DNA of 64,000 nucleotides, from the IMG/VR virus record IMGVR_UViG_3300049046_000039, positions 51,802-115,801 of that record, one strand, 5' to 3'. The DNA comes from a virus. Every line of letters starts with the position of its first letter. The first letter of the stretch is position 1. Positions 34,260-64,000 of this stretch are shown in pieces. The notes beneath the pieces were generated by a model. That model worked only from the letters and a program-made list of their open reading frames with translations. It ran no database searches and was not told where the DNA came from. A program made the position numbers and the translations under genes.

Positions 34260-34475
34260 TCACGCTGCCTTATTCTCAAGCTTGTACATAGTGTTACGCG
34301 TACGAACGTAACCATCTTCTTCATTAAGATCAATAGCTACAGAAGTCTTAATGACATCACCATCGTTAAACCTAGACTTACTGTCATCGTAGATCTTACC
34401 AATAATCACCTTATGGCGTGGTCCTAGTTCTAGTACGCTATAGTCACGTATTATTGCGTCGTATTTAATCATCAA
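34260..34475 (-). CDS. hypothetical protein
   Basis: G.IYDD...RF.DG..I.TS...TRNT.Y.L. Confidence 0.65.
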   Translation of the reverse strand: MMIKYDAIIRDYSVLELGPRHKVIIGKIYDDSKSRFNDGDVIKTSVAIDLNEEDGYVRTRNTMYKLENKAA

Positions 34476-36982
34476 AAGAAACTATCCAGTGTTGCTTTCT
34501 TTTCGGTAGACCAACCGATCACCGAGAGAATATCGTTAAGAGGGTCGAGGTAGGTCTTTGAGAACTGTCGATTGTAGTCGACGTGTCTGTCTAGACCGAA
34601 CTCTTTAGGAAGTGCCGACGTGATAGCGATCACGTCTTGTTTGCTGTGGTTCGGAATCTTGAGATAGCCGAACTTAACTTTGTCGCCGCTGTAGATGTAT
34701 TCGTAAGTGTCTTCTAAGCCGAGGTCCTTCACGAGCTTGTTGTAGACTAGAGAAGCTCTAGCGTGAATTGGAGTCGCTGGCTTGCACAGATTAGCAGCGT
34801 CGGCATACTTCTCTAAGTTGTTGACACCTCTAGGCATCGCGATCTTTTCGAACGAGTATTGATCGAACTCTTCTCGGAAGTCGGCGATAAACTTATGAAG
34901 CTTCTCTTCGCCATCGTTCATCATGATCTTGAAGGTCTCCTTCATAGCCTCGCGAACTACAGCAGGAGTCGAAGGCATCACGGCTTTAATACCAACGACT
35001 TTAAGCTCTGGCTCTTCTGGTCTGAATCCTTCGATGTCTCGAGCATTCAGCATGTAGTTCTTAGCTGCTACCCACATTCCCTTGTCGGCAATAGTCTCGC
35101 GCTTCATCTTAAGCGCTTTACTGTAGACGTTAAGCTGAGTGTAGAGGTCTTCGCACGCGTCGTTAATGACTTGCTGCAGCTTCTCCTTGGCTACCTTATC
35201 AACAAAGTCAGTGATCTTTTCCGGATCGCCGCCGTTAGGGAAGACCTTCTTGACGAGATCGTCGACGGTGAGATAGACCGAGTCTGTATCGCAAGCGATC
35301 ACGTAGTCTTTGTCAGTCTTTAGAAGACCGTTAAGGTATCTGTTGAGAGCTCTCTCGACCGTACGAGTAGCGAGCTGACCAGTCATAGTGATAGCTTCAG
35401 CGCAGTCGAGATCGAACCACCTGAACCATAGGTTACTTACAGCACCATAGGCTGAGTTCAGCTGAATCTTTCGAGCCATCTGAAGACCGTCGAACTTAGC
35501 GTACAGATTATCGTACTGCTGCTTCTTTACGGGGTCGTTCTCTTTTGAGGCTAGCTTCTTGTACTCTTTAGCCTTGTCCTTGAACTCCTTACGATCCTTA
35601 TACTTACTCTCCATGAGCTTCGACAGGATGCTCTGGCGATCTTTTCTAAATTGAGTCAGATTAGCGCCGAGTGCATAGTCCCCCTTGTTAGGTAGGTCTA
35701 CATGGCTAAAGCCCGTCGCCAAGGCAGAGGCCACGGTCCAGCCCGGGCTCCATCCCTTTCCGGCAATAGTGTCTGGCCCGATATTGAGAAGCATGATGAT
35801 GTGAGGATACAGCGAGTCGAAGTCGAATGACAGCACCCAGTTGTACATGCCAGGCTTGACTTCCTTAACGTAGCCACCGACGAGTTCTCGATCCATATGC
35901 TTAACCTCTTTAGGAGGAACGCAGATCTTATCGTTCATGAGCTCGTTATGAATGATGACGTCCCACGGCTTAACTGTCGCGAGAGTATCGTTATAGTTTA
36001 CCTTAGCATCGTACGCTAGGTAGAAGACTAGTTCGATGAACTTACACTTCTCTTCGAGCTTGTAGACTAGATCGACGTCATGGATGTTATAGTCGATGAA
36101 CTTAACGAAGTCTTTCTCGTACAGCTCGAAGATGTCCTCGAACTCTGAGTAGTCTACCTTCTTCTCACCTAGCTCCTTGTGAGCGATCGTGTTGAGCTTC
36201 CAGTCTTCAGAGTTAGAGAAGCTGAACTTCTTGTAGAGGTGTTGGTAGTCTAGAATCGTAATGCCGAGTGGAACGTACGTCTGATTAGACTTACCACGGA
36301 TTACGATCTCATGCTCCTGCATCATCTTCCAAGGAGAGAGTCTTGCAGCCGCGTCTTGGCCGAGTAGCATGGTAATGCGATTTACGATGTATGGAATATC
36401 GAAGAACTCGACGTTCCATCCGCTGATTACGTCGAGATCGAATGCTTCCCAGACCTTGATGAACTTAAGTAGAAGTTCGTGCTCGTCCTTGCACTTGATA
36501 TAGACCACGCTCTCGCTCTTGGGAGTGTAGTCCTTGTAGCCGAGCGTCACTGTCTGGTTGCGACGTCGAATCGATATTGCAGTGATTGGAGCAGTCGGAT
36601 TAGCAGGATTGATGCCACCCTTCTGCTTGTCGGTCTCGATATCGAGATATCCGACGTTGATGACGTTACTGTCAAAGTTGATGTCACCGCGATACTTGTC
36701 GTAGAGATACGTGTAGAGAAAGTCGGTAGAACCGAAGATGTTAAAGTTCTCGATTCCCTCGTACTCTTTAGCGAAGTCTCTCGCCTCACGAATACTGTTG
36801 AAGTGTATCTGATTTAGAGGATGACCGTAGATCGATTTGAACTTCGTCTCTTGGCCAGGCTTAGCCGGAATGAAGAGATAAGGTTCGTAGTTATCTTGAT
36901 ACTGAAAGCGCTTACCGTCTTTATGGCCGCGCACTAGAATGCGCCCACGGTACAAGTGCGCGTGAGTGTAGAATTTAGACAT
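34472..36982 (-). CDS. 43: T4 gp43-like family B DNA polymerase
   Basis: DIET exonuclease, DFDSLYPHII, KIQLNSAYG, DTDS. Confidence 0.98.
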   Translation of the reverse strand: MSKFYTHAHLYRGRILVRGHKDGKRFQYQDNYEPYLFIPAKPGQETKFKSIYGHPLNQIHFNSIREARDFAKEYEGIENFNIFGSTDFLYTYLYDKYRGDINFDSNVINVGYLDIETDKQKGGINPANPTAPITAISIRRRNQTVTLGYKDYTPKSESVVYIKCKDEHELLLKFIKVWEAFDLDVISGWNVEFFDIPYIVNRITMLLGQDAAARLSPWKMMQEHEIVIRGKSNQTYVPLGITILDYQHLYKKFSFSNSEDWKLNTIAHKELGEKKVDYSEFEDIFELYEKDFVKFIDYNIHDVDLVYKLEEKCKFIELVFYLAYDAKVNYNDTLATVKPWDVIIHNELMNDKICVPPKEVKHMDRELVGGYVKEVKPGMYNWVLSFDFDSLYPHIIMLLNIGPDTIAGKGWSPGWTVASALATGFSHVDLPNKGDYALGANLTQFRKDRQSILSKLMESKYKDRKEFKDKAKEYKKLASKENDPVKKQQYDNLYAKFDGLQMARKIQLNSAYGAVSNLWFRWFDLDCAEAITMTGQLATRTVERALNRYLNGLLKTDKDYVIACDTDSVYLTVDDLVKKVFPNGGDPEKITDFVDKVAKEKLQQVINDACEDLYTQLNVYSKALKMKRETIADKGMWVAAKNYMLNARDIEGFRPEEPELKVVGIKAVMPSTPAVVREAMKETFKIMMNDGEEKLHKFIADFREEFDQYSFEKIAMPRGVNNLEKYADAANLCKPATPIHARASLVYNKLVKDLGLEDTYEYIYSGDKVKFGYLKIPNHSKQDVIAITSALPKEFGLDRHVDYNRQFSKTYLDPLNDILSVIGWSTEKKATLDSFF

Positions 36983-55222: not shown

Positions 55223-55885
55223 TTAACCATTATACTCGCTGTTGCTTTCGATAGCAACGTAATACTCCATGTCCTTAGACTTGAAGCGCGAGATACCGAC
55301 CGAAGCGAGATCGACCGTATAGGTGTCTGGAAGAAGGCGAATGTTTTCGGCCTTGAAGATGAACTTGAAGTTCTTGGTAGTCTCACCTACGTCTACCGAA
55401 TAGACGTCAGACGTCGGGTCCTTTGAGTTGATAGTCTGGAGAGTGATAGTCTCACCGTTACCGACGATAGCGATCTCTGGCTGACGAAGAACACCAAGAG
55501 CCTTGGTAACGTCAGCGAGGTTCTCGGCCGTAAGCTCGAAGCTTACGTCTGCATCAGGGAACTTGATCTGCTTGTCGGCACTTGGAGCGACGATGGTATT
55601 CTCGTCAGCAAAGACGTAGTTTACCTTCTTCTTGCCAGAGCGAATGACTACCGAAGTCTCGCCGATCTCGAGATCGGGACTGTCGAAGAGGCTTAGAACG
55701 GAGAGGAACTTGTTGAGATCGTAGATCGCAAACTTAGAAGAGAACTCCTGCTCTAGAGTAGCCTGAGCGAGAATAGTCTTGGTTACAGTTACGGTCTTAA
55801 TTACGTTGCCTGGTCTAACTAGAATGCTAGGATTAATCGACGCAAAGTTCTTAAGGACCTGGATTGTGCGCTGGTCAAGCTTCAT
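55223..55885 (-). CDS. 45: sliding clamp gp45
   Basis: LKNFASINPS, FAIYDLN.FL. Confidence 0.96.
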   Translation of the reverse strand: MKLDQRTIQVLKNFASINPSILVRPGNVIKTVTVTKTILAQATLEQEFSSKFAIYDLNKFLSVLSLFDSPDLEIGETSVVIRSGKKKVNYVFADENTIVAPSADKQIKFPDADVSFELTAENLADVTKALGVLRQPEIAIVGNGETITLQTINSKDPTSDVYSVDVGETTKNFKFIFKAENIRLLPDTYTVDLASVGISRFKSKDMEYYVAIESNSEYNG

Positions 55886-56239: not shown

Positions 56240-57097
56240 TTATTTCTTTTTCTTCAGCGTGTTCGAGTCTGCGGTTGCAGGAGCACCGATCGAAGCGATG
56301 TGGCTTAACGATCCACCAAAGATGTAAGACCCAACGTGCTTTAGTTGCATCCACGGACAGAACCAAACGCTACCACCCATCTTGTTAACATTGTAACAGA
56401 ACATATAGTCTTCTGAGAGATAGCGCTTAGTGTCTGGATCGATAATAGTATCGAAGAACGCGTGAATATCTCTAGAGCCGTCAAAGGCTTCAGTTCTAAT
56501 GTGGTCTGGCTTATACTTCAGTTCAGGATAAGCCTGCTCGTATCTACGCAAAACGTCCTTGTTGAGCATCATAAATCCGGTGCCGATCTCTGCAACCTCG
56601 ACTGGTTCGATAAGAGAGATCTCGGTAGCACCGGACTTAGGATTAAAGACGTAGTCGCCGACGAAGTTCTCCAGAATGTTAGGATCTTCGTCAGCGACTC
56701 CCTTGTCTACAGCGAGCTTGATCTTCTCCCAAGAGATACACTTCTTGGGATATGGACCGCCGATCACTTCGTACTGGGGATTTTGAATAGATAGGGCTAG
56801 AAGTGCTAGCACGTCGCGCGCGTCGAATCCGATGTCCGAATCGATAAACACCATGTGCGTAGCATCACTGCGTAAAAACTCGTCGCAGCAATAGTTTCTA
56901 GCCCTAGTTATGAGAGACTCATTGAAAAGAAAGTAATACTGAACCTGAAGACCGTGCTGCGCGCACAGTGCAGACAGATCGATCATAGATCTAGTGTACA
57001 TACCGGCACACTGACCGCCGTACATCGGAGTTGCTATAAAGAGCTTGTGTCTGCGTAAGTCTTCGTGGGATATATTAATTTCAATGTTATGAGACAT
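56240..57097 (-). CDS. GT-A-fold glycosyltransferase-like protein
   Basis: ATPMYGG, ESLITRARN, FIDSDI, GTGFM, LSEDY, HVG. Confidence 0.8.
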   Translation of the reverse strand: MSHNIEINISHEDLRRHKLFIATPMYGGQCAGMYTRSMIDLSALCAQHGLQVQYYFLFNESLITRARNYCCDEFLRSDATHMVFIDSDIGFDARDVLALLALSIQNPQYEVIGGPYPKKCISWEKIKLAVDKGVADEDPNILENFVGDYVFNPKSGATEISLIEPVEVAEIGTGFMMLNKDVLRRYEQAYPELKYKPDHIRTEAFDGSRDIHAFFDTIIDPDTKRYLSEDYMFCYNVNKMGGSVWFCPWMQLKHVGSYIFGGSLSHIASIGAPATADSNTLKKKK

Positions 57098-57101
57098 TAT
57101 G

Positions 57102-57698
57102 TTATTTCTTTGCTCTCATTCTGTCTTCGTCAGTAAAGACTGTTCTAGCGCCGGTCGTTGCGTACGCTGTAGTTGCTGAAGCCATCCACTTCATCTCGTT
57201 GGCTAGGTTCTGAGTAGACACGCTGTAAGCCTTGCCTACACTGAGTCCAACCATCTTAGCCTGATCAGTAACGCTGTCAAAGTTAGCGCCCATGAAGACT
57301 ACTTCCCACTTACGATCTTCAGCACGAGCTAGCTTTTCGGCGATAGTCTGCTTGCTGAACTGTCGGCTAGTGTTCTCATGACCATCAGTCATAACGACAA
57401 CGTATGCCTTCTCAGGATTCTCTTCAAATGCCTTGTCGAGCATACGACCCATAGCGTCTAGAAGAGGAGTGCCACCTCTTGGTTGAAGCTCACTCTCATT
57501 AATCTGAGTGAAGCCCTGGCTGGTTGTATTTCTTAGTACGTCGTATGAGATTGAGCTATTGTAGTCGCTATCGAAAGCCGCGATGTATACGTTAGTATCT
57601 TTTGGGAGTTCTTTAACGTAGGTATTAATAGCACCAATAGTATCGGACCACTGGCTCGCCATAGAGCCCGAGCGGTCAAGTAGAAGATAAACTCTCAT
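57102..57698 (-). CDS. vWA-domain protein
   Basis: LLDRSGSM, GTPLLDA, TDGHENTS. Confidence 0.88.
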   Translation of the reverse strand: MRVYLLLDRSGSMASQWSDTIGAINTYVKELPKDTNVYIAAFDSDYNSSISYDVLRNTTSQGFTQINESELQPRGGTPLLDAMGRMLDKAFEENPEKAYVVVMTDGHENTSRQFSKQTIAEKLARAEDRKWEVVFMGANFDSVTDQAKMVGLSVGKAYSVSTQNLANEMKWMASATTAYATTGARTVFTDEDRMRAKK

Positions 57699-57699
57699 C

Positions 57700-58053
57700 T
57701 TATTCTTTCTCGTTTTGGTCGTGCACGTGTAGCATCATGATCGCATAATGGCACACCTTTAGCAGATCGGCGCGGTTCTTGCCGGCCTTTTTACCGTATC
57801 TCTGTGCGTATTTGATGATGTTGCCGATGCAGAATCCCTCGCCATGCCCGGCGTCCATGATGAATTCTGTTGACTGGATTTTGGATTTTGCGTAGTGCTG
57901 ACCATAGGTTTTGTCGATGTATTGCTTCAATTCTAGGATTAACTTATCCTCATTGAAACAATAGTCGATCTCAGGAGTGTCTCGATCGTTTTCGGTCGAG
58001 ACGGCTTGAACGGGACTATTTTCTCTGTCCTCGTGATATTTATATGCGCTCAT
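57700..58053 (-). CDS. DUF3310 (SaV-like) protein
   Basis: HY...GFCIGNIIKYAQRYGKK...DLLK. Confidence 0.8.
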   Translation of the reverse strand: MSAYKYHEDRENSPVQAVSTENDRDTPEIDYCFNEDKLILELKQYIDKTYGQHYAKSKIQSTEFIMDAGHGEGFCIGNIIKYAQRYGKKAGKNRADLLKVCHYAIMMLHVHDQNEKE

Positions 58054-58059
58054 TGAGTC

Positions 58060-59286
58060 TCACTGCATAAAGTCTACGATTGTGGTAGGTTCTTTCTCCT
58101 CCCAGATCTCGTAGCGTCGGTTAACATTTTGCTGATACGTGTAGTTAGACTTTACGTATGGTCTATTACCGAGAAGAACTTCGTTAACTTCTCGAGCCAT
58201 ATCTCTCGCGGTCTTAACTGGAACGTTCTGACAGATATGATTCGCTGACTTCTTTGGATTAAGAAGCTCGAAGTCTTCTGGCATACCCATGATGCTCAGC
58301 GCTTCTCTGTACGTGATGTATCTATCTTGATCAGGATGAGTAAGCATGCTAGGATAGTGACCCACAAAGGCACCAATGAAGTCTTTAGGAACAATAGTCC
58401 CGCGCCGCATAATATTGCCACCGCTAGCCAGTTTATCGTACTTGTACTTACACTTCTCGGCTTCATTCTCGTATCCGTTCTCTTCAAGCCACTTGCCGAC
58501 TTGCTTGTAGTCGTATCCCTGCTGTTCGATAAACGAGAACACGTCGTTAGAACGAACTTTAAGGAACTCCATCTTGCTGTGAGAGAAGTCGTAGTGACTG
58601 ATGCCGCCGTACATCTCTTCAAGAATGAATCGGTAGTAGGGATCGTCCTTCGAAGGAATCTTCGAGTTGATGACGTCCTGCATGGTGTTAGACTTAGCGT
58701 TACGAATAACGTCTTCGATCTTTTCCCATGGCGTATTGTAGTAGTTTAGAAGAGGAGTCTTATCGCCCTTCCAGAAGAAGTAGAAAGATCTCTCGCGAGT
58801 CTGAGCGGTGCCGTGAAGTAGAGACTTGGTACGATAGATTGACATAGAGTAACCATTGTCTAAGCCGATCTTGCGAACTTGCTCTCGAATGTCCTTGCCG
58901 ATCTTGCCGGCGAAGCCAGGAGCGTTCTCACCCCAGAACACGTCAGGCTTAAGCTCTCCCAGTACGTACTGAGCTGTCTTGATCATCCACTGGTTGTTTT
59001 GGTTGTGAGTGCCGAAGCCGTGAGACAGCTGGCTGAGTCCTGCGCACGGACACGTAGTGTTGACTACGTTTACTCTCTTACTAGGACGCTCACCTCTATC
59101 GATATAGTGATAGGGTATGTCCATACCACGCTGAGCGTAGTAGTTTAGAAGATGCGACTCGTTAGCCTGGAAGCCTTCGTAAGTCATGAAGTACTCAGGA
59201 GGAGTTCCGTTCTCTAGTTCCTGAGCTATAGTCATTCCACCGATGAGAGGTATAATTGACGCGTGTGTTATGTTATTTGGAGTCAT
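58060..59286 (-). CDS. DNA cytosine-C5 methyltransferase-like protein
   Basis: CPCAGLS (IV), ENAP (VI), QTRERSF (VIII), REAL.IMG.P, QNVP; motif I atypical. Confidence 0.8.
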   Translation of the reverse strand: MTPNNITHASIIPLIGGMTIAQELENGTPPEYFMTYEGFQANESHLLNYYAQRGMDIPYHYIDRGERPSKRVNVVNTTCPCAGLSQLSHGFGTHNQNNQWMIKTAQYVLGELKPDVFWGENAPGFAGKIGKDIREQVRKIGLDNGYSMSIYRTKSLLHGTAQTRERSFYFFWKGDKTPLLNYYNTPWEKIEDVIRNAKSNTMQDVINSKIPSKDDPYYRFILEEMYGGISHYDFSHSKMEFLKVRSNDVFSFIEQQGYDYKQVGKWLEENGYENEAEKCKYKYDKLASGGNIMRRGTIVPKDFIGAFVGHYPSMLTHPDQDRYITYREALSIMGMPEDFELLNPKKSANHICQNVPVKTARDMAREVNEVLLGNRPYVKSNYTYQQNVNRRYEIWEEKEPTTIVDFMQ

Positions 59287-59503
59287 TATTGTCTCTAGTT
59301 AGTAGTCTGTGTGAAGGCCATTTCTTGTTTTCATCACCGCTTCCCCAGCACCTATCACATACACCACTGGTTAATGTTTGACCACCGGCTCCACCGCGCC
59401 ATGTTGCAGTACATCCATACGTCTTAACACCCCAGCCTCCACACTCTTTACAAGGGGTGTCTATACCTCGAATATCTAGCATCACCTGATAGATATCGCT
59501 CAT
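59273..59503 (-). CDS. DnaJ-type zinc-finger small protein
   Basis: CKECGG.G ... CDRCWGSG. Confidence 0.7.
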   Translation of the reverse strand: MSDIYQVMLDIRGIDTPCKECGGWGVKTYGCTATWRGGAGGQTLTSGVCDRCWGSGDENKKWPSHRLLTRDNNDSK

Positions 59504-60648
59504 TAGAAGAAGCTCTCTAAGTTAGCTTTAGGCACCACTGGATTTGCTGGGAGCCCCTGCTTTTTAGGGTCCTTAATCTGAGTGGTGTTGTACTCGACTC
59601 CTGTCCAATGCGGATAAGACATTCGACTAAGATGGACGGACTTCTTGTACTCCATAGCGTGGAGATTAAGTTCTCCCTTCTTGTTGAGGAGGTAGTCTGT
59701 CCACTCGATAAACTTAAGCGCGTCACTTGGAATCGAGTCGCAGAGTTCTTTAAGTCGAGCATTAAATCTCTTTCGTGCATCCATTCTCTCCTGCCACGTT
59801 CCCCAGAACGGCTGCTTCATAAAGTATCCAGATTGTGGAAGCTTACGAGCTTCCTCCTCACACGGAAGCAGTTCGTAGAAGCCGACAGTCTTTAGCTTAG
59901 GGTAAGTCTTAAAGAGTTCAGCACCTGCATTGAAGTACTCGAGAGCTAGATCTTCTGGTGACGGCCATAGGTCTACACCCTCCTTAGTCTCTTTTCTACA
60001 GAGGTGATGGCGTAAGTCGATGTTGCCGAAGTACAGCTCGACGTTCTCGACTTGATTGTTAGACTCATATGGGTCTGAGATGTACTTCTCAAATCCGTCT
60101 CGAATAGCTCCCTTGAGCGTCTTAAACGGTCTGGAGTTAACGACCCAGCCGGGTCGATACATGCAGATGCTGTGACTGTCGCCGATGACGATGTTAGGCG
60201 TAACGTAAGGATAGCGAAGAACTACTGAGCTCTCCATTCTCTTTAGGTTGTCCCAGTCTACTTCGTCAAACTCTGGTTGAGGAGTGTGACCGTTAGCTCT
60301 GTCTTGAGCTAGCTTTTCAGTCAGCTGTCGGTGGTAGTCCGGAAACGGAATGGCCAGCGAAATAACTTCGCCTTTGAACTTGGTGAGGTTTCGGAAGTTC
60401 CACGCATAAGGGAAGCCCTTAGTGCCCCCATAGAGATTAAGTCCACCAGACCAGTCATTCCCATGATACACATAGACCTTATCAAATTCGTTAAAATCGT
60501 GGCAGACATTTCCGCCGAAGTTTACTACTACGTCTTCACCCGTAGCTTGCTTTACCATGTCAGCATAGATAACGCCTTGCGCTGCACGATGGCTGGCCAG
60601 GAATGCTGCAATGGGAATAAATGGAGCTACTACTAACGATCTAGTCAT
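59503..60648 (-). CDS. conserved protein with SGNH-like C-terminal domain
   Basis: IGDSHS, FGNIDLRHH, SVHL. Confidence 0.6.
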   Translation of the reverse strand: MTRSLVVAPFIPIAAFLASHRAAQGVIYADMVKQATGEDVVVNFGGNVCHDFNEFDKVYVYHGNDWSGGLNLYGGTKGFPYAWNFRNLTKFKGEVISLAIPFPDYHRQLTEKLAQDRANGHTPQPEFDEVDWDNLKRMESSVVLRYPYVTPNIVIGDSHSICMYRPGWVVNSRPFKTLKGAIRDGFEKYISDPYESNNQVENVELYFGNIDLRHHLCRKETKEGVDLWPSPEDLALEYFNAGAELFKTYPKLKTVGFYELLPCEEEARKLPQSGYFMKQPFWGTWQERMDARKRFNARLKELCDSIPSDALKFIEWTDYLLNKKGELNLHAMEYKKSVHLSRMSYPHWTGVEYNTTQIKDPKKQGLPANPVVPKANLESFF

Positions 60649-61919
60649 TATAAAAAGAAACCTTCAATTGTTGAAGCACCACCGCCGACCTCTTTAGAGA
60701 TCGGTGCATTAGCTCTAGCCGCAGCAGCATTTGCGTTGGTGCTTAGTCTCTGGAAGACGTTAAACTGGCAGCAGGCGATCTCTACACCGAAGGTAGTATA
60801 TTGACCTAGCTCTGTAGCCTCTCTCATATACTTATAATCCATCTCCGAAGAAATGTCAAGGTATTTGTGCTGGTTGTCCCTTAAGTGTAGAATGAGATGC
60901 ATGCTGGTAGATGCATTAATAGCAACATTAGGGAATAGACATTTGAGAGTAGCGCAGGCGCCTGGACCAGCAACCACGTAGTCAGCATTCTCGTCAAGGT
61001 TTCCATGATCAATTCCTAGTTTACTAAAAGCGACAGCGTACTCTCTGTCGATAAGAGATGCGGCACCGATGCCTGGCATTCGAGCTAAGTTAGAAGAAAA
61101 GTGGTAGCCGTAGTAGGGACCAATACCACGAGTAGCAGTTAAGTACTCGTAGCTCTGCTTCATGGTCGGCTTAGTCTTATAGAACTCGATCCACTGAGGA
61201 GCCATGCTCTTAATCCATACGATCATGTCGGAAGTTCTCATCTTCCTAGTCTCGTCTGGATTCTTAGATGCAGCGATGATGGTCTTATTGTTAAAGCTCA
61301 GACCGCGCTTATCGAGCGTAGTGAGTCTGCTTCTAGCGTAGTTTCTAGAAGCTACCTGCAGTGAGGTGCGAAGTTCGGTAGTACCCCAAATCTGCTCTTT
61401 GTGATGAGATGCTAGTTCGATGTTACTTACGAGAGTGTACTCGTAGTCCTCATCTTCTCGCAGTCGATTAAAGTCAATGTAGGGGGTTTCGGTCTTTGTG
61501 AGATACGGGATGTCTGATGCATATCCCGTAATGATGTCGAGGGTTCTTGAAGGACCGTAGAACTTAACGATAGCGGAGTTGATGAGCTTATTCTCAAAGC
61601 TGACACTCGTGTCGTAATATAACCTTCCATTGAGCCAGATGACTTCATCGTGAAAGCTACGGTTGGGGTGGAAGTATGGAACCGGCTTTCCAGCCACGAC
61701 GAATCCAGTCCCAAATTCACTATCGTGGGTGTACCCGTTTTGGGCGTAATCTTCAAATGACTCATGAGTCTTTCCAATTCGGACAGACCATTCTCGCTTA
61801 TTAAACTCTCGAATGAAGTTACCCCACTGCTTTCTTACAATGTGGTCACATCTGTCCCATATTTGTTCTGAATTAAGTTGTAGTACTTGGTCTGTCTTCA
61901 GGACTTCCATGCCAAACAT
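60648..61919 (-). CDS. aGPT-Pplase1-like (amino acid:DNA transferase family) protein
   Basis: F..NR..D, GIGPYYGYH, VVAGPGA, VEIACCQF resemble the clade-1 motifs. Confidence 0.6.
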   Translation of the reverse strand: MFGMEVLKTDQVLQLNSEQIWDRCDHIVRKQWGNFIREFNKREWSVRIGKTHESFEDYAQNGYTHDSEFGTGFVVAGKPVPYFHPNRSFHDEVIWLNGRLYYDTSVSFENKLINSAIVKFYGPSRTLDIITGYASDIPYLTKTETPYIDFNRLREDEDYEYTLVSNIELASHHKEQIWGTTELRTSLQVASRNYARSRLTTLDKRGLSFNNKTIIAASKNPDETRKMRTSDMIVWIKSMAPQWIEFYKTKPTMKQSYEYLTATRGIGPYYGYHFSSNLARMPGIGAASLIDREYAVAFSKLGIDHGNLDENADYVVAGPGACATLKCLFPNVAINASTSMHLILHLRDNQHKYLDISSEMDYKYMREATELGQYTTFGVEIACCQFNVFQRLSTNANAAAARANAPISKEVGGGASTIEGFFL

Positions 61920-62277
61920 TCTCTTTCTCGACCAAGTCGTGCACTAGTAATACTACAGGAACATCTACAATCTTACGAATCTCTTCGGCTTGAACTGGAT
62001 CGTCCTCGAAGTGAACTCCGACCTTTATGCCATAGCTAAGAAGAAGCTTTAGAGTCTCTCCCTTATGCTTACCAGATGCTTCGCGAGTCTTCTCGGTAAA
62101 CTTTAGTGGACTGTAGAATACAGTATTGTAGACGCCAACACTATGAAGCCACTCGTTAGTATACTTAGCTTCTTCGAAAGAACGGCCGGTGATGATAATG
62201 TCACCATACATTGGAGTAAGTCCTCGGTAGTCTGGACCGAGGTTGATTACACCGTCAATGTCGTATGTGTTGATCAA
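61873..62277 (-). CDS. HAD-superfamily phosphatase
   Basis: YDIDGV, ITGRS, K, FEDD. Confidence 0.8.
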   Translation of the reverse strand: MINTYDIDGVINLGPDYRGLTPMYGDIIITGRSFEEAKYTNEWLHSVGVYNTVFYSPLKFTEKTREASGKHKGETLKLLLSYGIKVGVHFEDDPVQAEEIRKIVDVPVVLLVHDLVEKENVWHGSPEDRPSTTT

Positions 62278-62456
62278 GAGTACGCATCCTTCGCTCTTTC
62301 TCTAGCCTGATCGATTAGATCAGCAACGTAGTCTTTATAGCGCTCGTTGACGTGTTTTTCAGCATACTGTTCAGCTTCATCTTCAGTGCACTCAGGGTTT
62401 TCGAGAGTGTACTCTTCGATAAGATCTTCGTAAGCAAGAATCCACATGTCTTTCAT
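62274..62456 (-). CDS. hypothetical protein
   Basis: coupled ORF. Confidence 0.6.
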   Translation of the reverse strand: MKDMWILAYEDLIEEYTLENPECTEDEAEQYAEKHVNERYKDYVADLIDQARERAKDAYS

Positions 62457-62761
62457 CGGTCAGTCCATTCGTAAATAGAGTTGTGAGTTCTAAACTTAAC
62501 GTAGCGATACTCGCCTTGCTCGTCTTCTCGCATCTCGTCTTCGAGTATCTCTTGAACTTCTGTAGTCTGCCACCAGTCTTGTCCTGAGTAGGACCTCGCA
62601 AATAGAGATCCTACTCGAACACAATAACCTACTACTGGAATTTCAGATTGAATGTATTCAATCTCAACCTGATCGTTTTCGTTCAAGGAGTACTTGAAAA
62701 ATTGACACATAGGTCCGCTGTCGCCGCCGATGCCGCCGGCGCGCCATAACGAATATACCAT
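62453..62761 (-). CDS. hypothetical protein
   Basis: coupled ORF. Confidence 0.65.
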   Translation of the reverse strand: MVYSLWRAGGIGGDSGPMCQFFKYSLNENDQVEIEYIQSEIPVVGYCVRVGSLFARSYSGQDWWQTTEVQEILEDEMREDEQGEYRYVKFRTHNSIYEWTDR

Positions 62762-62762
62762 G

Positions 62763-64000
62763 TTACTTTACGCTTTCGAGATTCTTTACAGTAACGCTTC
62801 CGTCTGAGTGAGTAGTTACTTCAGCCACGTCAGGAAGATTATGAGTCGCGAGACTGTTAGTGAGACGACGGTTAGCCAGAGCTTCACACTCGCGGTGTGC
62901 GTCGTCGATCATCATCTGCGTAGGAGGCGTCTTTTGAGTCGCTGCAGAAGGACCTCGAAGAGAACCAACAAGACCCATTTCGCGAGCCACCTGAAGATAA
63001 CGGATAGCATCGATCACGACTCCTGCACTGTTTGGAGAGTCTTGAACTGATAAACGAGCGTCAAAGATGACTGGGGCGCCACCAAAGCCCTCGGCTTCAA
63101 TTCGGAAATGCGCGACCTTGTTGTCTCCATGGTACGCAATGTAGCTAGAAGGTCCCGCGTAAATACCATTCTTAGGGACAGGGATTCCTCGAATGTCATT
63201 CTGACTCCTGATAACGTTTTCCTTACTGATCTTCTTCGAGGCCAGACGAGTCTGGTCCATCATGTTGAGGAAGTCAGTGTTACCACCATGGTTGGTCTGC
63301 TCGTGGAACTTAACCTTCATACCACGATTGAAGAAGAGCTCTTGAAGAGCTTGAGACATGATCGAAGCGCCGAGCTGCGATCTCATGTCGTCGCCAATAG
63401 CAGGAATGCCGGCAGCTTTAATGCGCTTCTCCCACTTAGGGTCAGAAACGATAAAGACTGGAATGCAGTTAACGAAAGGAACTTTAGCCTTGAGGCATCC
63501 CTCGACGTAAAACTCCGTAGCTTCCTGAGAGCCGACTGGCAGGTAGTTAAGAACTACGTCTACTTCATGGTCGATAAGGTCTTGAACGAGCTGCTCTTTA
63601 GTAAGCTGCTCGCTTACTTCATCGATGCGGAAAGACTCGTCCTCGTCCCAGTTAATCATGTGAGAAGCAACACCGTCGAGTACTCGACCCATCTTAACTT
63701 CTGTTCTGATGATGTGACCTTCTCTAGTCTCACCGACACAGCAAATGTCTGGCAGACTGTCTTTGTCAATCTGCATGTCCATGGCGCAGTTAGGCTTTGC
63801 GTAGATAGCATCGTCTAGATACTGTCCAACCTTACGGGGGTCGACGTCATAAGCTAGAACAAACTCGATGTTGTCTGCTGTATAGCCACCAATTTCAGGA
63901 AATGCTAGACCAGCTGTCTCGCCAGTCTTAGAGTATAGAGCTACGCCTTCGATAAGGCTCTTAGCACAATTGCCGACACCAATGACGGCGACGCGAATTT
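62763..64000 (-). CDS. ino1: myo-inositol-1-phosphate synthase, 5'-truncated by window edge
   Basis: frame open to 64000: IRVAVIGVGNCAKSL; YLPVGS, FVNCIP, GDD..SQ.GA, GGNTDFLN, SKKISK, DSPNSAG. Confidence 0.95.
   Translation of the reverse strand, partial: IRVAVIGVGNCAKSLIEGVALYSKTGETAGLAFPEIGGYTADNIEFVLAYDVDPRKVGQYLDDAIYAKPNCAMDMQIDKDSLPDICCVGETREGHIIRTEVKMGRVLDGVASHMINWDEDESFRIDEVSEQLTKEQLVQDLIDHEVDVVLNYLPVGSQEATEFYVEGCLKAKVPFVNCIPVFIVSDPKWEKRIKAAGIPAIGDDMRSQLGASIMSQALQELFFNRGMKVKFHEQTNHGGNTDFLNMMDQTRLASKKISKENVIRSQNDIRGIPVPKNGIYAGPSSYIAYHGDNKVAHFRIEAEGFGGAPVIFDARLSVQDSPNSAGVVIDAIRYLQVAREMGLVGSLRGPSAATQKTPPTQMMIDDAHRECEALANRRLTNSLATHNLPDVAEVTTHSDGSVTVKNLESVK

Follow-up and report, generated by a model that had tools for sequence, protein, structure and literature searches.

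A gene set in an uncultured T4-like phage pointing to a predicted inositol-bearing cytosine in its DNA

Results

Layout of the gene run. The window analyzed here is a stretch of 64,000 nucleotides from an uncultured T4-like phage (IMG/VR record IMGVR_UViG_3300049046_000039), and its end is also the end of the contig. The gene run lies entirely on the minus strand, ordered from the myo-inositol-1-phosphate synthase (MIPS) gene, which the contig end cuts at about residue 3, to o285 and then the gp45 sliding clamp gene (55223..55885; PF09116, 1.5e-13). Junctions up to o285 are overlaps of 1 to 47 bp or gaps of a few bases. A preliminary description of this run from MIPS to a GT-A enzyme upstream of gene 45 held for coordinates, order, and tight coupling, and its MIPS, HAD phosphatase, SGNH-like, C5-methyltransferase-like, DUF3310, and vWA assignments were confirmed by family, motif, or fold matches. 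Conservation is given below for 79 viral contigs or loci that carry a relative of o423 (identity down to 23%), with neighbors counted within 10 kb.

Inositol supply. MIPS (62763..64000; 5' end missing) matches PF01658 (1.4e-25) and phrog_33138 (1e-150), and it aligns full-length to TIGR03450 over residues 1 to 373 at 291 bits, a score under the equivalog cut-off. Its NAD-binding GxGxxA motif does not vary across A3, nor do its NxGGNTDF and SKKISKENV blocks. The two small open reading frames reported after MIPS are present: o102 (62453..62761), with no Pfam or PHROG match, and the acidic o60 (62274..62456), with no significant family match. Relatives of o102 occur in just 2 of the 79 loci, a Nuc_deoxyri_tr2 gene occupying its position in relative L004, and o60 is not conserved in relatives. 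The small capless HAD phosphatase o134 (61873..62277) matches phrog_415 (polynucleotide kinase; 3e-09), and its motifs YDIDGV (DxDGV), ITGR, HK, and FEDDP (EDD) are kept across 67 homologues. A phosphatase of this type adjoins MIPS in 73/79 o423-side and 67/80 MIPS-side loci, as well as in Stenotrophomonas phage Marzo. We regard o134 as a candidate inositol-phosphate phosphatase, whose substrate could be the group in free form or already attached to DNA.

The candidate transferase and its partner. The product of o423 (60648..61919) is an HhH DNA-glycosylase-fold protein of the aGPT-Pplase1/HMUDK_hel family. It scores 27.7 bits against PF18723 (HMUDK_hel), barely above the cut-off of 25, and its AF2 model has a pLDDT of 92.8, with a disordered C-terminal tail, STIEGFFL. 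VIA-align ranks QNG1 (Z 9.1) and the PaMx11 5-PmdU glycinyltransferase 8z2m (Z 9.0) ahead of 21 HhH glycosylases, and BFVD matches are the SP10 5-hmdU DNA kinase (5.5e-5) and HMUDK_hel and Pplase1 (clade 1) proteins (prob 1.0). Profile and fold thus agree with the earlier label "aGPT-Pplase1-like." Residues E380 and C384 are invariant within an E-x3-C-Q-F motif, and the form E-x3-C-[QEK]-[FWY] is common to o423, PaMx11 gp46 (ADDT), and gp50; the cysteine and glutamate are essential for ADDT activity (PMC8989533). We regard o423 as a candidate base-flipping group transferase. Two observations count against this assignment: the sequence-profile similarity is weak (hhalign E 0.3 to gp46 and 0.04 to gp50), and the M6 pathway could be reconstituted in vitro without the PF18723 clade of aGPT-Pplase proteins, to which o423 belongs (PMC8989533), so that o423 may be a DNA-handling partner only. 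FkbM-o423 fusions occur among its relatives.

The adjacent o381 (59503..60648) combines an N-terminal alpha/beta domain with an SGNH-hydrolase fold spanning residues 145 to 349 of an AF2 model with a pLDDT of 85.9; phrog_17781 matches the N-terminal half. Foldseek against the PDB returns a sialate O-acetylesterase (3.7e-6, prob 1.0), VIA-align gives Z 14.4 to 2hsj over residues 145 to 348, and GDSH, GN(I)D, and H339 are invariant. Aeromonas phages carry homologues of o381 and o423 as a single fused protein, a parallel to SP10 gp186, in which a kinase is joined to a helical domain (PMC5889632). A search for a P-loop activating kinase of the 5-hmdU type, run without a positive control, found none.

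Accessory genes. A 76-amino-acid CxxC...CxxC protein, o76 (59273..59503), was missing from the earlier gene list; its sequence reads as zinc-ribbon-like, with weak similarity to DnaJ_CXXCXGXG (E 0.15), and it is kept in close relatives only. The cytosine-C5 methyltransferase-like o408 (58060..59286; PF00145, 5.1e-16) keeps CPCAGLS (PC), GENAPG, QxRxR, RE, and QNVP, with a degenerate motif I, PLIGG, and its type occurs in 19/79 loci. DUF3310 (o117, 57700..58053; PF11753, 1.6e-12; phrog_480) is found in nine of the 79 loci and the vWA-domain protein (o198, 57102..57698; PF00092, 3.6e-12) in six, relative L003 lacking the latter. Genes of the o285 type (56240..57097) occur in 8/79 loci, each time directly upstream of gp45. 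The GT-A enzyme previously proposed here retains an FIDSD (DxD) motif and ESM Atlas features at 0.98 to clusters in which about one-third of members carry GT2 or Anp1, but it has no Pfam or NCBIfam match, only phrog_1574 of unknown function; a tailoring glycosyltransferase is possible, as a lead only. In most other lineages an FkbM O-methyltransferase fills this speculative tailoring position. Outside the core, then, are the methyltransferase-like, vWA, DUF3310, and GT-A-like genes, which belong to particular lineages.

Proposed clamp-docking tails. The phage's own gp43-like family B DNA polymerase (34472..36982, minus strand; PF00136, 2.3e-21) ends in ...KKATLDSFF, and the C termini of o381 (ANLESFF), o423, and o408 (TTIVDFMQ) are of the same type as this ATLDSFF tail; o285 has no clamp-like tail. 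In a distant lineage the corresponding ends are STSLF (polymerase), INSLF (o381), and QQTLF (o423). A tail expression was positive for 43/70 o423 and 55/72 o381 proteins, against 0/75 for MIPS, 0/73 for HAD, 0/25 for gp42, and 27/1039 in the background, where 21 of the 27 are DNA polymerase family members; the expression was composed after the tails had been seen, which counts against the reading favored below. We propose from these sequences that gp45 may be a docking platform for o423, o381, and o408.

Co-occurrence across phages. The o423-side loci hold MIPS in 75/79, o381 in 74/79, and HAD in 73/79, in fixed gene orders, so that the link between MIPS and o423 relatives is borne out across phages. 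Approached from MIPS, o381 is present in 62/80 loci and o423 in 52/80. Where MIPS occurs without o423, its neighbors are ADDT, TAGT, Tet_JBP (TET/JBP) plus GT4, or QueC. These data strongly tie inositol synthesis to DNA-modifying enzymes, and this much of the earlier proposal stands. That proposal is thereby supported in part: inositol would be a candidate for the group attached to the pyrimidine, and any glycosylation or acylation of it would be speculative. Counting against the favored reading, the cultured MIPS phages (Menderavirus, Cr30, and RP13) have neither o423 nor o381.

Target base. As described earlier, the window holds no hydroxymethylase, and a thymidylate-synthase-family gene is absent from the whole contig. 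That description proposed looking for one upstream of position 64000, and in L003, L004, and other close relatives a gp42-type gene sits just upstream of MIPS; the contig itself ends there. These gp42-like genes carry L143D, D169, and N177D, the diagnostic signature of 5hmdCMP synthase (PMC13326640). G000, the complete relative G001, and Aeromonas phage 31 all lack alpha- and beta-glucosyltransferase; on its positive control, RB51, the alpha-glucosyltransferase model (PF11440) scored 786 bits. These sequences narrow the likely target base to 5-hydroxymethylcytosine (5hmC), the presence of which in this phage we infer from synteny.

Discussion

When these genes are placed together, the locus may be read as that half of a cytosine hypermodification pathway which acts after replication and is fed by phage-made inositol, and inositol or its phosphate is probably, although far from certainly, coupled post-replicatively to 5hmC. 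DNA containing 5hmC would be made by a gp42-type 5-hydroxymethyl-dCMP synthase, a MazG/PRA-PH pyrophosphatase, DUF1599, and dCMP deaminase, whose genes, judging from relatives, would lie beyond the contig end. MIPS would convert glucose-6-phosphate to inositol phosphate, and the HAD phosphatase would strip the phosphate before or after transfer, as their families suggest. Through their polymerase-like tails, o381 and o423, and here presumably also o408, would dock on the gp45 clamp and act on newly made DNA. It is a guess that o381 stands in for the 5-hmdU DNA kinase, perhaps as an acylase of the 5hmC hydroxyl. Without such activation, forming an ether on 5hmC would be thermodynamically unfavorable, which counts against the reading. 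The o423 cysteine of the Glu-x3-Cys dyad could then attack C6 of the flipped 5hmC, the leaving group exiting the 5-CH2-O position, and addition of an inositol hydroxyl would give 5-(inosityl-oxymethyl)cytosine, which o285 might, speculatively, tailor further. A literature search found no description of an inositol-modified DNA base, in agreement with the preliminary description.

It is conceivable, if rather unlikely, that the DNA is modified with a group other than inositol, MIPS and HAD giving a precursor, or inositol phosphate serving as cofactor or regulator. Here o381 would decorate 5hmC with an acyl or some other group, as befits SGNH enzymes, which are typically O-acyl esterases or transferases, and o423 would only flip the base, as is thought for HMUDK_hel with its kinase; PF18723-clade proteins are kinase partners that can be dispensed with in vitro (PMC8989533). 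The FkbM methyltransferase between HAD and o423 in 62 loci and the o381-o423 pair without MIPS in Aeromonas phages would also fit. However, the near-obligate linkage of MIPS and HAD is hard to explain without stoichiometric use of their product, the E-x3-C dyad is invariant, and import of a sugar-like substrate would suit the SGLT-type symporter found next to the Aeromonas fusion.

That MIPS and HAD are an auxiliary metabolic pair (osmolyte, inositol lipid, or host-envelope remodeling), sharing no more than a hyperplastic region with the unrelated DNA-metabolism genes, is very improbable. MIPS has many cellular roles, the annotations of Cr30 and RP13 show no recognizable modification enzyme directly beside it, and the vWA, DUF3310, and GT-A-like neighbors are not kept across loci; yet gene order and co-occurrence are fixed across lineages as divergent as the o423 relatives, pairing of MIPS recurs independently with ADDT, TET/JBP, TAGT, and QueC, and the conserved core holds no lipid- or envelope-related gene. 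Least probable of all is a true glycosylase or QNG1-like nucleotide hydrolase role for o423 in pool sanitation, repair, or anti-defense, since, despite the tie of QNG1 with the transferase as best structural match, the glycosylases ranked next, and the UDG, Pyr_excise, and nucleoside deoxyribosyltransferase-like neighbors in L004, the Cys-Glu dyad is of the transferase type, o423 lies nearest, among viral folds, to HMUDK_hel and Pplase1 proteins, the clamp tail and SGNH/FkbM fusions argue for on-DNA tailoring, and MIPS is left unexplained.

The inositol reading can be set beside three known systems. In Aeromonas phage 31/44RR2.8t, the uncharacterized ORF233c (795 amino acids) fuses homologues of o381 (58% identity) and o423 (29%). 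As here, gene 42 has the 5hmdCMP signature and glucosyltransferase is lacking (PMC2993671), whereas MIPS, HAD, and methyltransferase-like, vWA, or GT-A-like neighbors are absent and the sodium:solute symporter gene lies directly upstream of the fusion.

Thymidine hypermodification in M6, ViI, PaMx11, PhiW-14, and SP10 uses a dUMP hydroxymethylase, a 5-hmdU DNA kinase, and an aGPT-Pplase or amino-acid:DNA transferase (PMC5889632, PMC8989533). The predicted pathway would likewise make a hydroxymethyl pyrimidine before replication and afterward use an HhH glycosylase-fold enzyme with a Glu-x3-Cys dyad to transfer a free small-molecule nucleophile rather than an NDP derivative. Both also pair or fuse the catalytic domain with an HMUDK_hel-type domain and cluster with a thymidylate-synthase homologue, here seen in relatives. 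In contrast, the base here would be cytosine (N177D) and not uracil, an SGNH-fold protein takes the partner position of the P-loop kinase, the supplied molecule would be a cyclitol from phage MIPS and HAD instead of an amino acid or polyamine, the enzymes end in clamp tails resembling that of the polymerase, and o423, at 423 amino acids, has an N-terminal extension of about 100 residues and barely reaches the PF18723 cut-off.

The T-even phages glucosylate 5hmC (gp42, gp56, and alpha-/beta-glucosyltransferase), and RB69 and DLP3 contain arabinosyl-5-hydroxycytosine (PMC2993671, PMC13326640). The present system differs in having no GT-B DNA glucosyltransferase, in an HhH transferase fold and a donor predicted not to be an NDP-sugar, and, relative to RB69/DLP3, in D169 (5hmC type) in place of D169N (5hoC type). 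It has a T4-like genome as they do, and would share with them a gp42-type synthase, a dCTPase-type pyrophosphatase, and a dCMP deaminase, after which the new hydroxyl would be decorated on the DNA, presumably to escape restriction and modification-dependent nucleases.

A gene run with an inositol phosphate synthase

Eleven minus-strand ORFs, meeting in overlaps of 1 to 47 bp or across gaps of a few bases, run from position 56240 of the window to the end of the contig and are followed by gp45, the sliding clamp, and gp44. The preliminary description had placed a candidate inositol-linked DNA hypermodification cluster here; the genes that it listed are correct, and the interpretation built on them is supported in part. 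The contig, whose closing 64 kb is the window, is 115.8 kb long, 64% complete (CheckV), and without a terminal repeat. It truncates the gene for myo-inositol-1-phosphate synthase (MIPS) at about residue 3, and continuation of this gene at the contig start through circular permutation is ruled out by the lack of a terminal repeat and by a junction that gives no sensible N terminus. When the region was compared with cultured phages by megablast, there was no match. G+C content is 52 to 55% over the initial ~20 kb (contig positions 1 to 20000, outside the window), versus 45 to 50% for the remainder.

MIPS (62763 to the contig end) matches PF01658 at 89.9 bits and TIGR03450 over its full length (protein 1 to 373, model 1 to 353 of 355 positions) at 291 bits, which is under the 638-bit equivalog cutoff, and its NAD-binding and catalytic blocks are conserved in an alignment of relatives. 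Downstream lie o102 (62453 to 62761) and o60 (62274 to 62456), neither with a family, and then o134 (61873 to 62277), a capless HAD phosphatase. Its motifs I to IV (YDIDGV, ITGR, HK, and FEDDP, of the form DxDGV/ITGR/HK/EDD) are conserved in 67 homologues, and it matches phrog_415 at 3e-09, with no Pfam (even at E 10) or NCBIfam match. In the related locus L004 (9150 to 9644), a nucleoside 2-deoxyribosyltransferase-like gene (PF15891) sits between MIPS and the HAD gene, a position taken in the window by o102 and o60, which are unrelated to it.

On the basis of these assignments, MIPS and the phosphatase would together provide inositol, either in free form or as inositol phosphate whose phosphate is removed once transfer has taken place, as occurs in several cellular inositol pathways. 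A free polyol acting as a nucleophile fits the mechanism of the amino-acid:DNA transferases (ADDTs), where the electrophile is the base, and not glycosyl transfer from an NDP-sugar. MIPS is absent from the Aeromonas phages that carry a fusion of o381 and o423, the two ORFs considered below. Directly upstream of the fusion gene, these phages encode a sodium:solute symporter (in Aeromonas phage 31, ORF234c; L002, 5304 to 6827) with vSGLT, a sugar transporter of Vibrio, as its best match (351 bits), and it is possible that this symporter serves as an uptake route for the modification substrate.

Conservation of the module across phages

A profile-guided scan of IMG/VR with o423 recovered 79 viral loci, with identity down to 23%. 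Within 10 kb of o423, MIPS is present at 75 of the 79 loci, o381 at 74, and the HAD phosphatase at 73, so that the co-occurrence expected of a linked cluster is borne out. The commonest order is DUF6378, o381, MIPS, HAD, FkbM methyltransferase, o423, and NTP pyrophosphatase, and the block adjoins DNA polymerase and ribonucleotide reductase genes. The other genes of the window are lineage-specific extras among these loci (MTase-like, 19; DUF3310, 9; o285, 8; vWA, 6). Viewed from the MIPS side, 534 viral stretches hold a relative, and among the best 80 of these o381 is found in 62 and o423 in 52.

MIPS loci that lack o423 are also informative. MIPS and HAD genes stand beside ADDT genes in three loci (L121, L122, and L124), the last of which also has a TAGT glycosyltransferase; in L110 (6163 to 10333), MIPS has a GT4 glycosyltransferase gene on one side and a Tet_JBP dioxygenase gene on the other; and it lies beside QueC in L139 (7989 to 11522), like the 7-deazaguanine cluster of Stenotrophomonas Menderavirus. 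Because of these neighbors, phage MIPS can be said to accompany four or more kinds of machinery that modify DNA bases. No relatives of o423 or o381 were detected by HMM near MIPS in Marzo, Cr30, and RP13. In Stenotrophomonas phage Marzo (L001, 8089 to 13612) and in L139, MIPS and a small HAD gene are placed inside a FolE/QueC/DpdA-type 7-deazaguanine cluster, an arrangement that raises the question of an inositol-decorated deazaguanine.

The o381-o423 enzyme pair

The assignment of o423 (60648 to 61919) as an aGPT-Pplase1-like protein was confirmed by its match to PF18723 (HMUDK_hel), at 27.7 bits against a gathering cutoff of 25 (E 2.2e-06, with no single stretch significant by itself); PF18723 also appears in the precomputed annotation of most homologues. 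For comparison, gp50 of phage PaMx11 matches this model at 141 bits, and PaMx11 gp46 matches the ADDT model PF18724. An AlphaFold model of o423, built on an alignment of 54 homologues (pLDDT 92.8), was compared exhaustively with VIA-align, and the top 23 rows all belong to the HhH DNA-glycosylase superfamily (Z 4.3 to 9.1), led by QNG1 (Z 9.1) and the PaMx11 5-PmdU glycinyltransferase gp46 (Z 9.0, rmsd 4.4 over 231 residues). In the viral structure library BFVD, the leading Foldseek matches after ORF233c (the Aeromonas phage 31 fusion) include the SP10 5-hmdU DNA kinase, several "HMUDK helical domain" proteins, and "Pplase1 clade 1" proteins, all with probability 1.0. The fold was placed only by these two routes, as Foldseek against the PDB gave nothing below E 0.4, and searching PDB sequences with a profile of the o423 homologues gave no match. 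Alignment to single PaMx11 sequences with hhalign was weak (E 0.3 for gp46). E380 and C384 are invariant in the 54 sequences, within a motif E-x3-C-Q-F (EIACCQF) that has counterparts in gp46 (EVETILCKW), in gp50 (EHTLCEF), and in the MIPS-adjacent ADDT of L124 (ESVWCQF). From the PF18723 match, the two structural comparisons, and the comparison with gp50 and gp46, we conclude that o423 is a member of the aGPT-Pplase superfamily and falls in the clade whose usual partner is a nucleobase kinase. No relatives were found in species-representative bacterial and archaeal genomes with a short-pattern prefilter of limited sensitivity.

The conserved module has no P-loop 5-hmdU DNA kinase adjoining or fused to o423, and its neighbor is instead o381 (59503 to 60648). 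In the o381 model (pLDDT 85.9), residues 1 to 144 form an alpha/beta domain, and residues 145 to 349 adopt the SGNH-hydrolase fold (Foldseek 3.7e-6; Z 14.4 to 2hsj). S158 (within GDSH), N209 (within GNxD), and H339 are strictly conserved and G185 almost as strictly, which accounts for the four SGNH signature residues; o381 has no Pfam match, including to the GDSL models even at E 10. Aeromonas phages 31 and 44RR2.8t encode the pair as one polypeptide of 795 amino acids in the order o381-o423. Elsewhere, o423 homologues carry a fused FkbM methyltransferase domain, which is N-terminal to the o423 domain in L040 to L043 (ORFs of ~600 amino acids) and in P0063 (720 amino acids); this is a second case of a catalytic domain joined to the HhH domain of o423.

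The probable target base

No thymidylate synthase homologue is present on the contig, which stops exactly where the sequence of its relatives goes on upstream of MIPS. In L004 (173.6 kb, 100% complete, 69 to 83% identity across the cluster), L003, and others, this upstream region holds gp46, a PRA-PH/MazG pyrophosphatase, DUF1599, a gp42-like gene, and dCMP deaminase, with a UDG gene as well in L004. Of the hydroxymethylase and kinase that the preliminary description had left to be sought upstream, the first is thus represented in relatives by the gp42-like synthase gene, and for the second the 5-hmdU DNA kinase model PF18748 had no match in five records, in a search run without a positive control.

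The gp42-like protein of L003 is 54 to 62% identical to T4-type gp42, and L143D, D169, and N177D (ThyA numbering) are found in the proteins of L003, L004, L093 to L097, and Aeromonas phage 31; among these carriers are paralogues from five large records and from phage 31. In the published rule for these synthases, L143D/E with D169 and N177D specifies 5-hydroxymethyl-dCMP, and D169N specifies 5-hydroxy-dCMP (PMC13326640). It follows from this rule that the predicted product of the relatives' enzyme is 5-hydroxymethyl-dCMP, rather than 5-hydroxy-dCMP or a dUMP product. 5-Hydroxycytosine as the base in lineages with the module is ruled out, since D169 is kept. At the ADDT loci, the thymidylate synthase-like genes combine N177 with L143D, which is the dUMP-hydroxymethylase pattern.

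Models of the T4 alpha- and beta-glucosyltransferases found nothing in the contig, the complete relative G001, or phage 31, with RB51 as the positive control for the alpha-glucosyltransferase model PF11440 (786 bits). Phages 44RR, 31, and 25 were previously described as having genes 42, 56, and alc and no glucosyltransferase (Petrov et al. 2010, PMC2993671).

Clamp-like tails and accessory genes

In T4 and RB69, the C-terminal tail of the polymerase binds the gp45 clamp. The DNA polymerase of the window phage ends in KKATLDSFF, and similar tails end o381 (ANLESFF), o423 (STIEGFFL), and o408 (TTIVDFMQ); in a distant lineage, the polymerase ends in STSLF, o381 in INSLF, and o423 in QQTLF. A regular expression written after the tails had been seen matches 43 of 70 o423 proteins, 55 of 72 o381 proteins, and 7 of 19 o408 proteins. 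It has zero matches in MIPS, HAD, gp42, dCMP deaminase, and o285, and 27 among 1039 other genes, 21 of which belong to the DNA polymerase family. The tails are disordered in the o423 and o381 models. As enzyme and polymerase tails co-vary across lineages, there is good evidence at the sequence level that o381, o423, and o408 are clamp clients, from which we infer binding. In a distant module-bearing phage (record G003, 234 kb; loci L176 and L178), the family-B DNA polymerase is split into two ORFs of 467 and 399 amino acids, ~5 kb apart.

The accessory gene o408 (58060 to 59286) encodes a C5-MTase-like protein whose PF00145 match begins at model position 61. The PC, ENA (ENV-like), QxRxR, RE, and QNVP motifs are present, and the SAM-binding motif I is degenerate (PLIGG for FxGxG). 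C5-MTases can, in vitro, swap the hydroxyl of 5-hydroxymethylcytosine (5hmC) for other nucleophiles. Next to it, o117 (57700 to 58053) is a DUF3310 protein and o198 (57102 to 57698) a vWA protein. The weakest call of the preliminary description is the GT-A label of o285 (56240 to 57097), a language-model lead only, to clusters partly carrying GT2 or Anp1; the protein has a DSD motif, belongs to no family, and has no Pfam (even at E 10) or NCBIfam glycosyltransferase match. Missing from that description was o76 (59273 to 59503), a protein of 76 amino acids with two CxxC pairs, zinc-ribbon or DnaJ-like, which lies between o381 and the MTase-like gene and is kept only in close relatives.

Proposed chemistry and relation to known systems

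When these results are taken together, inositol or its phosphate probably ends up on cytosine in the phage DNA. By analogy rather than observation, Cys384 of o423 would attack C6 of the base, a leaving group would depart from the 5-methylene, and an inositol hydroxyl would add. It could be speculated that 5hmC is activated by the SGNH protein o381, with O-acylation as one conceivable route. Since the M6 reconstitution worked without the PF18723 clade (PMC8989533), o423 could alternatively be mainly a base-flipping partner. More tentatively than inositol on cytosine as such, a joint reading can be put forward in which phages of many lineages may make a cyclitol ether of 5hmC, 5-(myo-inosityl-oxymethyl)cytosine, which some of them would also methylate or glycosylate; a clamp-tethered enzyme pair would install it behind the fork, with an SGNH-fold activator in place of the nucleobase kinase and with a Cys/Glu transferase of the aGPT-Pplase type acting on cytosine, not thymine. 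A full-text literature search, covering some but not all journals, turned up no account of a DNA base that carries inositol.

If 5-(myo-inosityl-oxymethyl)cytosine is indeed made, phage MIPS would have a general role, supplying inositol to at least four different DNA modification chemistries. Should the chemistry hold, a carbocyclic polyol would be a new class of appended group in natural DNA, and the aGPT-Pplase transferase mechanism would be extended from thymine to cytosine. It would also be a candidate answer to a question open since 2010, namely, what, if anything, decorates 5hmC in gene-42-positive T4 relatives without glucosyltransferases, such as Aeromonas phages 44RR2.8t, 31, and 25 (PMC2993671). 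The clamp-docking tails suggest a route for coupling hypermodification to replication. Bases of this kind are important to how phages resist restriction, CRISPR, and modification-dependent nucleases, and their enzymes could be tools for 5hmC labeling; as the enzyme pair is present in cultured Aeromonas phages, the idea is directly testable.

Known systems offer close comparisons. The Cys and the neighboring Glu, both essential in ADDT (PMC8989533), appear from the alignment to be conserved in o423 also, although the Pfam model itself, PF18724, is unmatched even at E 10. In SP10 gp186, the kinase precedes the helical domain (PMC5889632), the same order as in the Aeromonas o381-o423 fusion; in SP10 the fused partner is a 5-hmdU kinase, whereas here an SGNH-fold protein has that position. 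The system proposed here would be of a known kind, the postreplicative hypermodification of hydroxymethyl pyrimidines, and what would be new is an unprecedented cyclitol supply together with a clamp-tethered SGNH/HhH enzyme pair.
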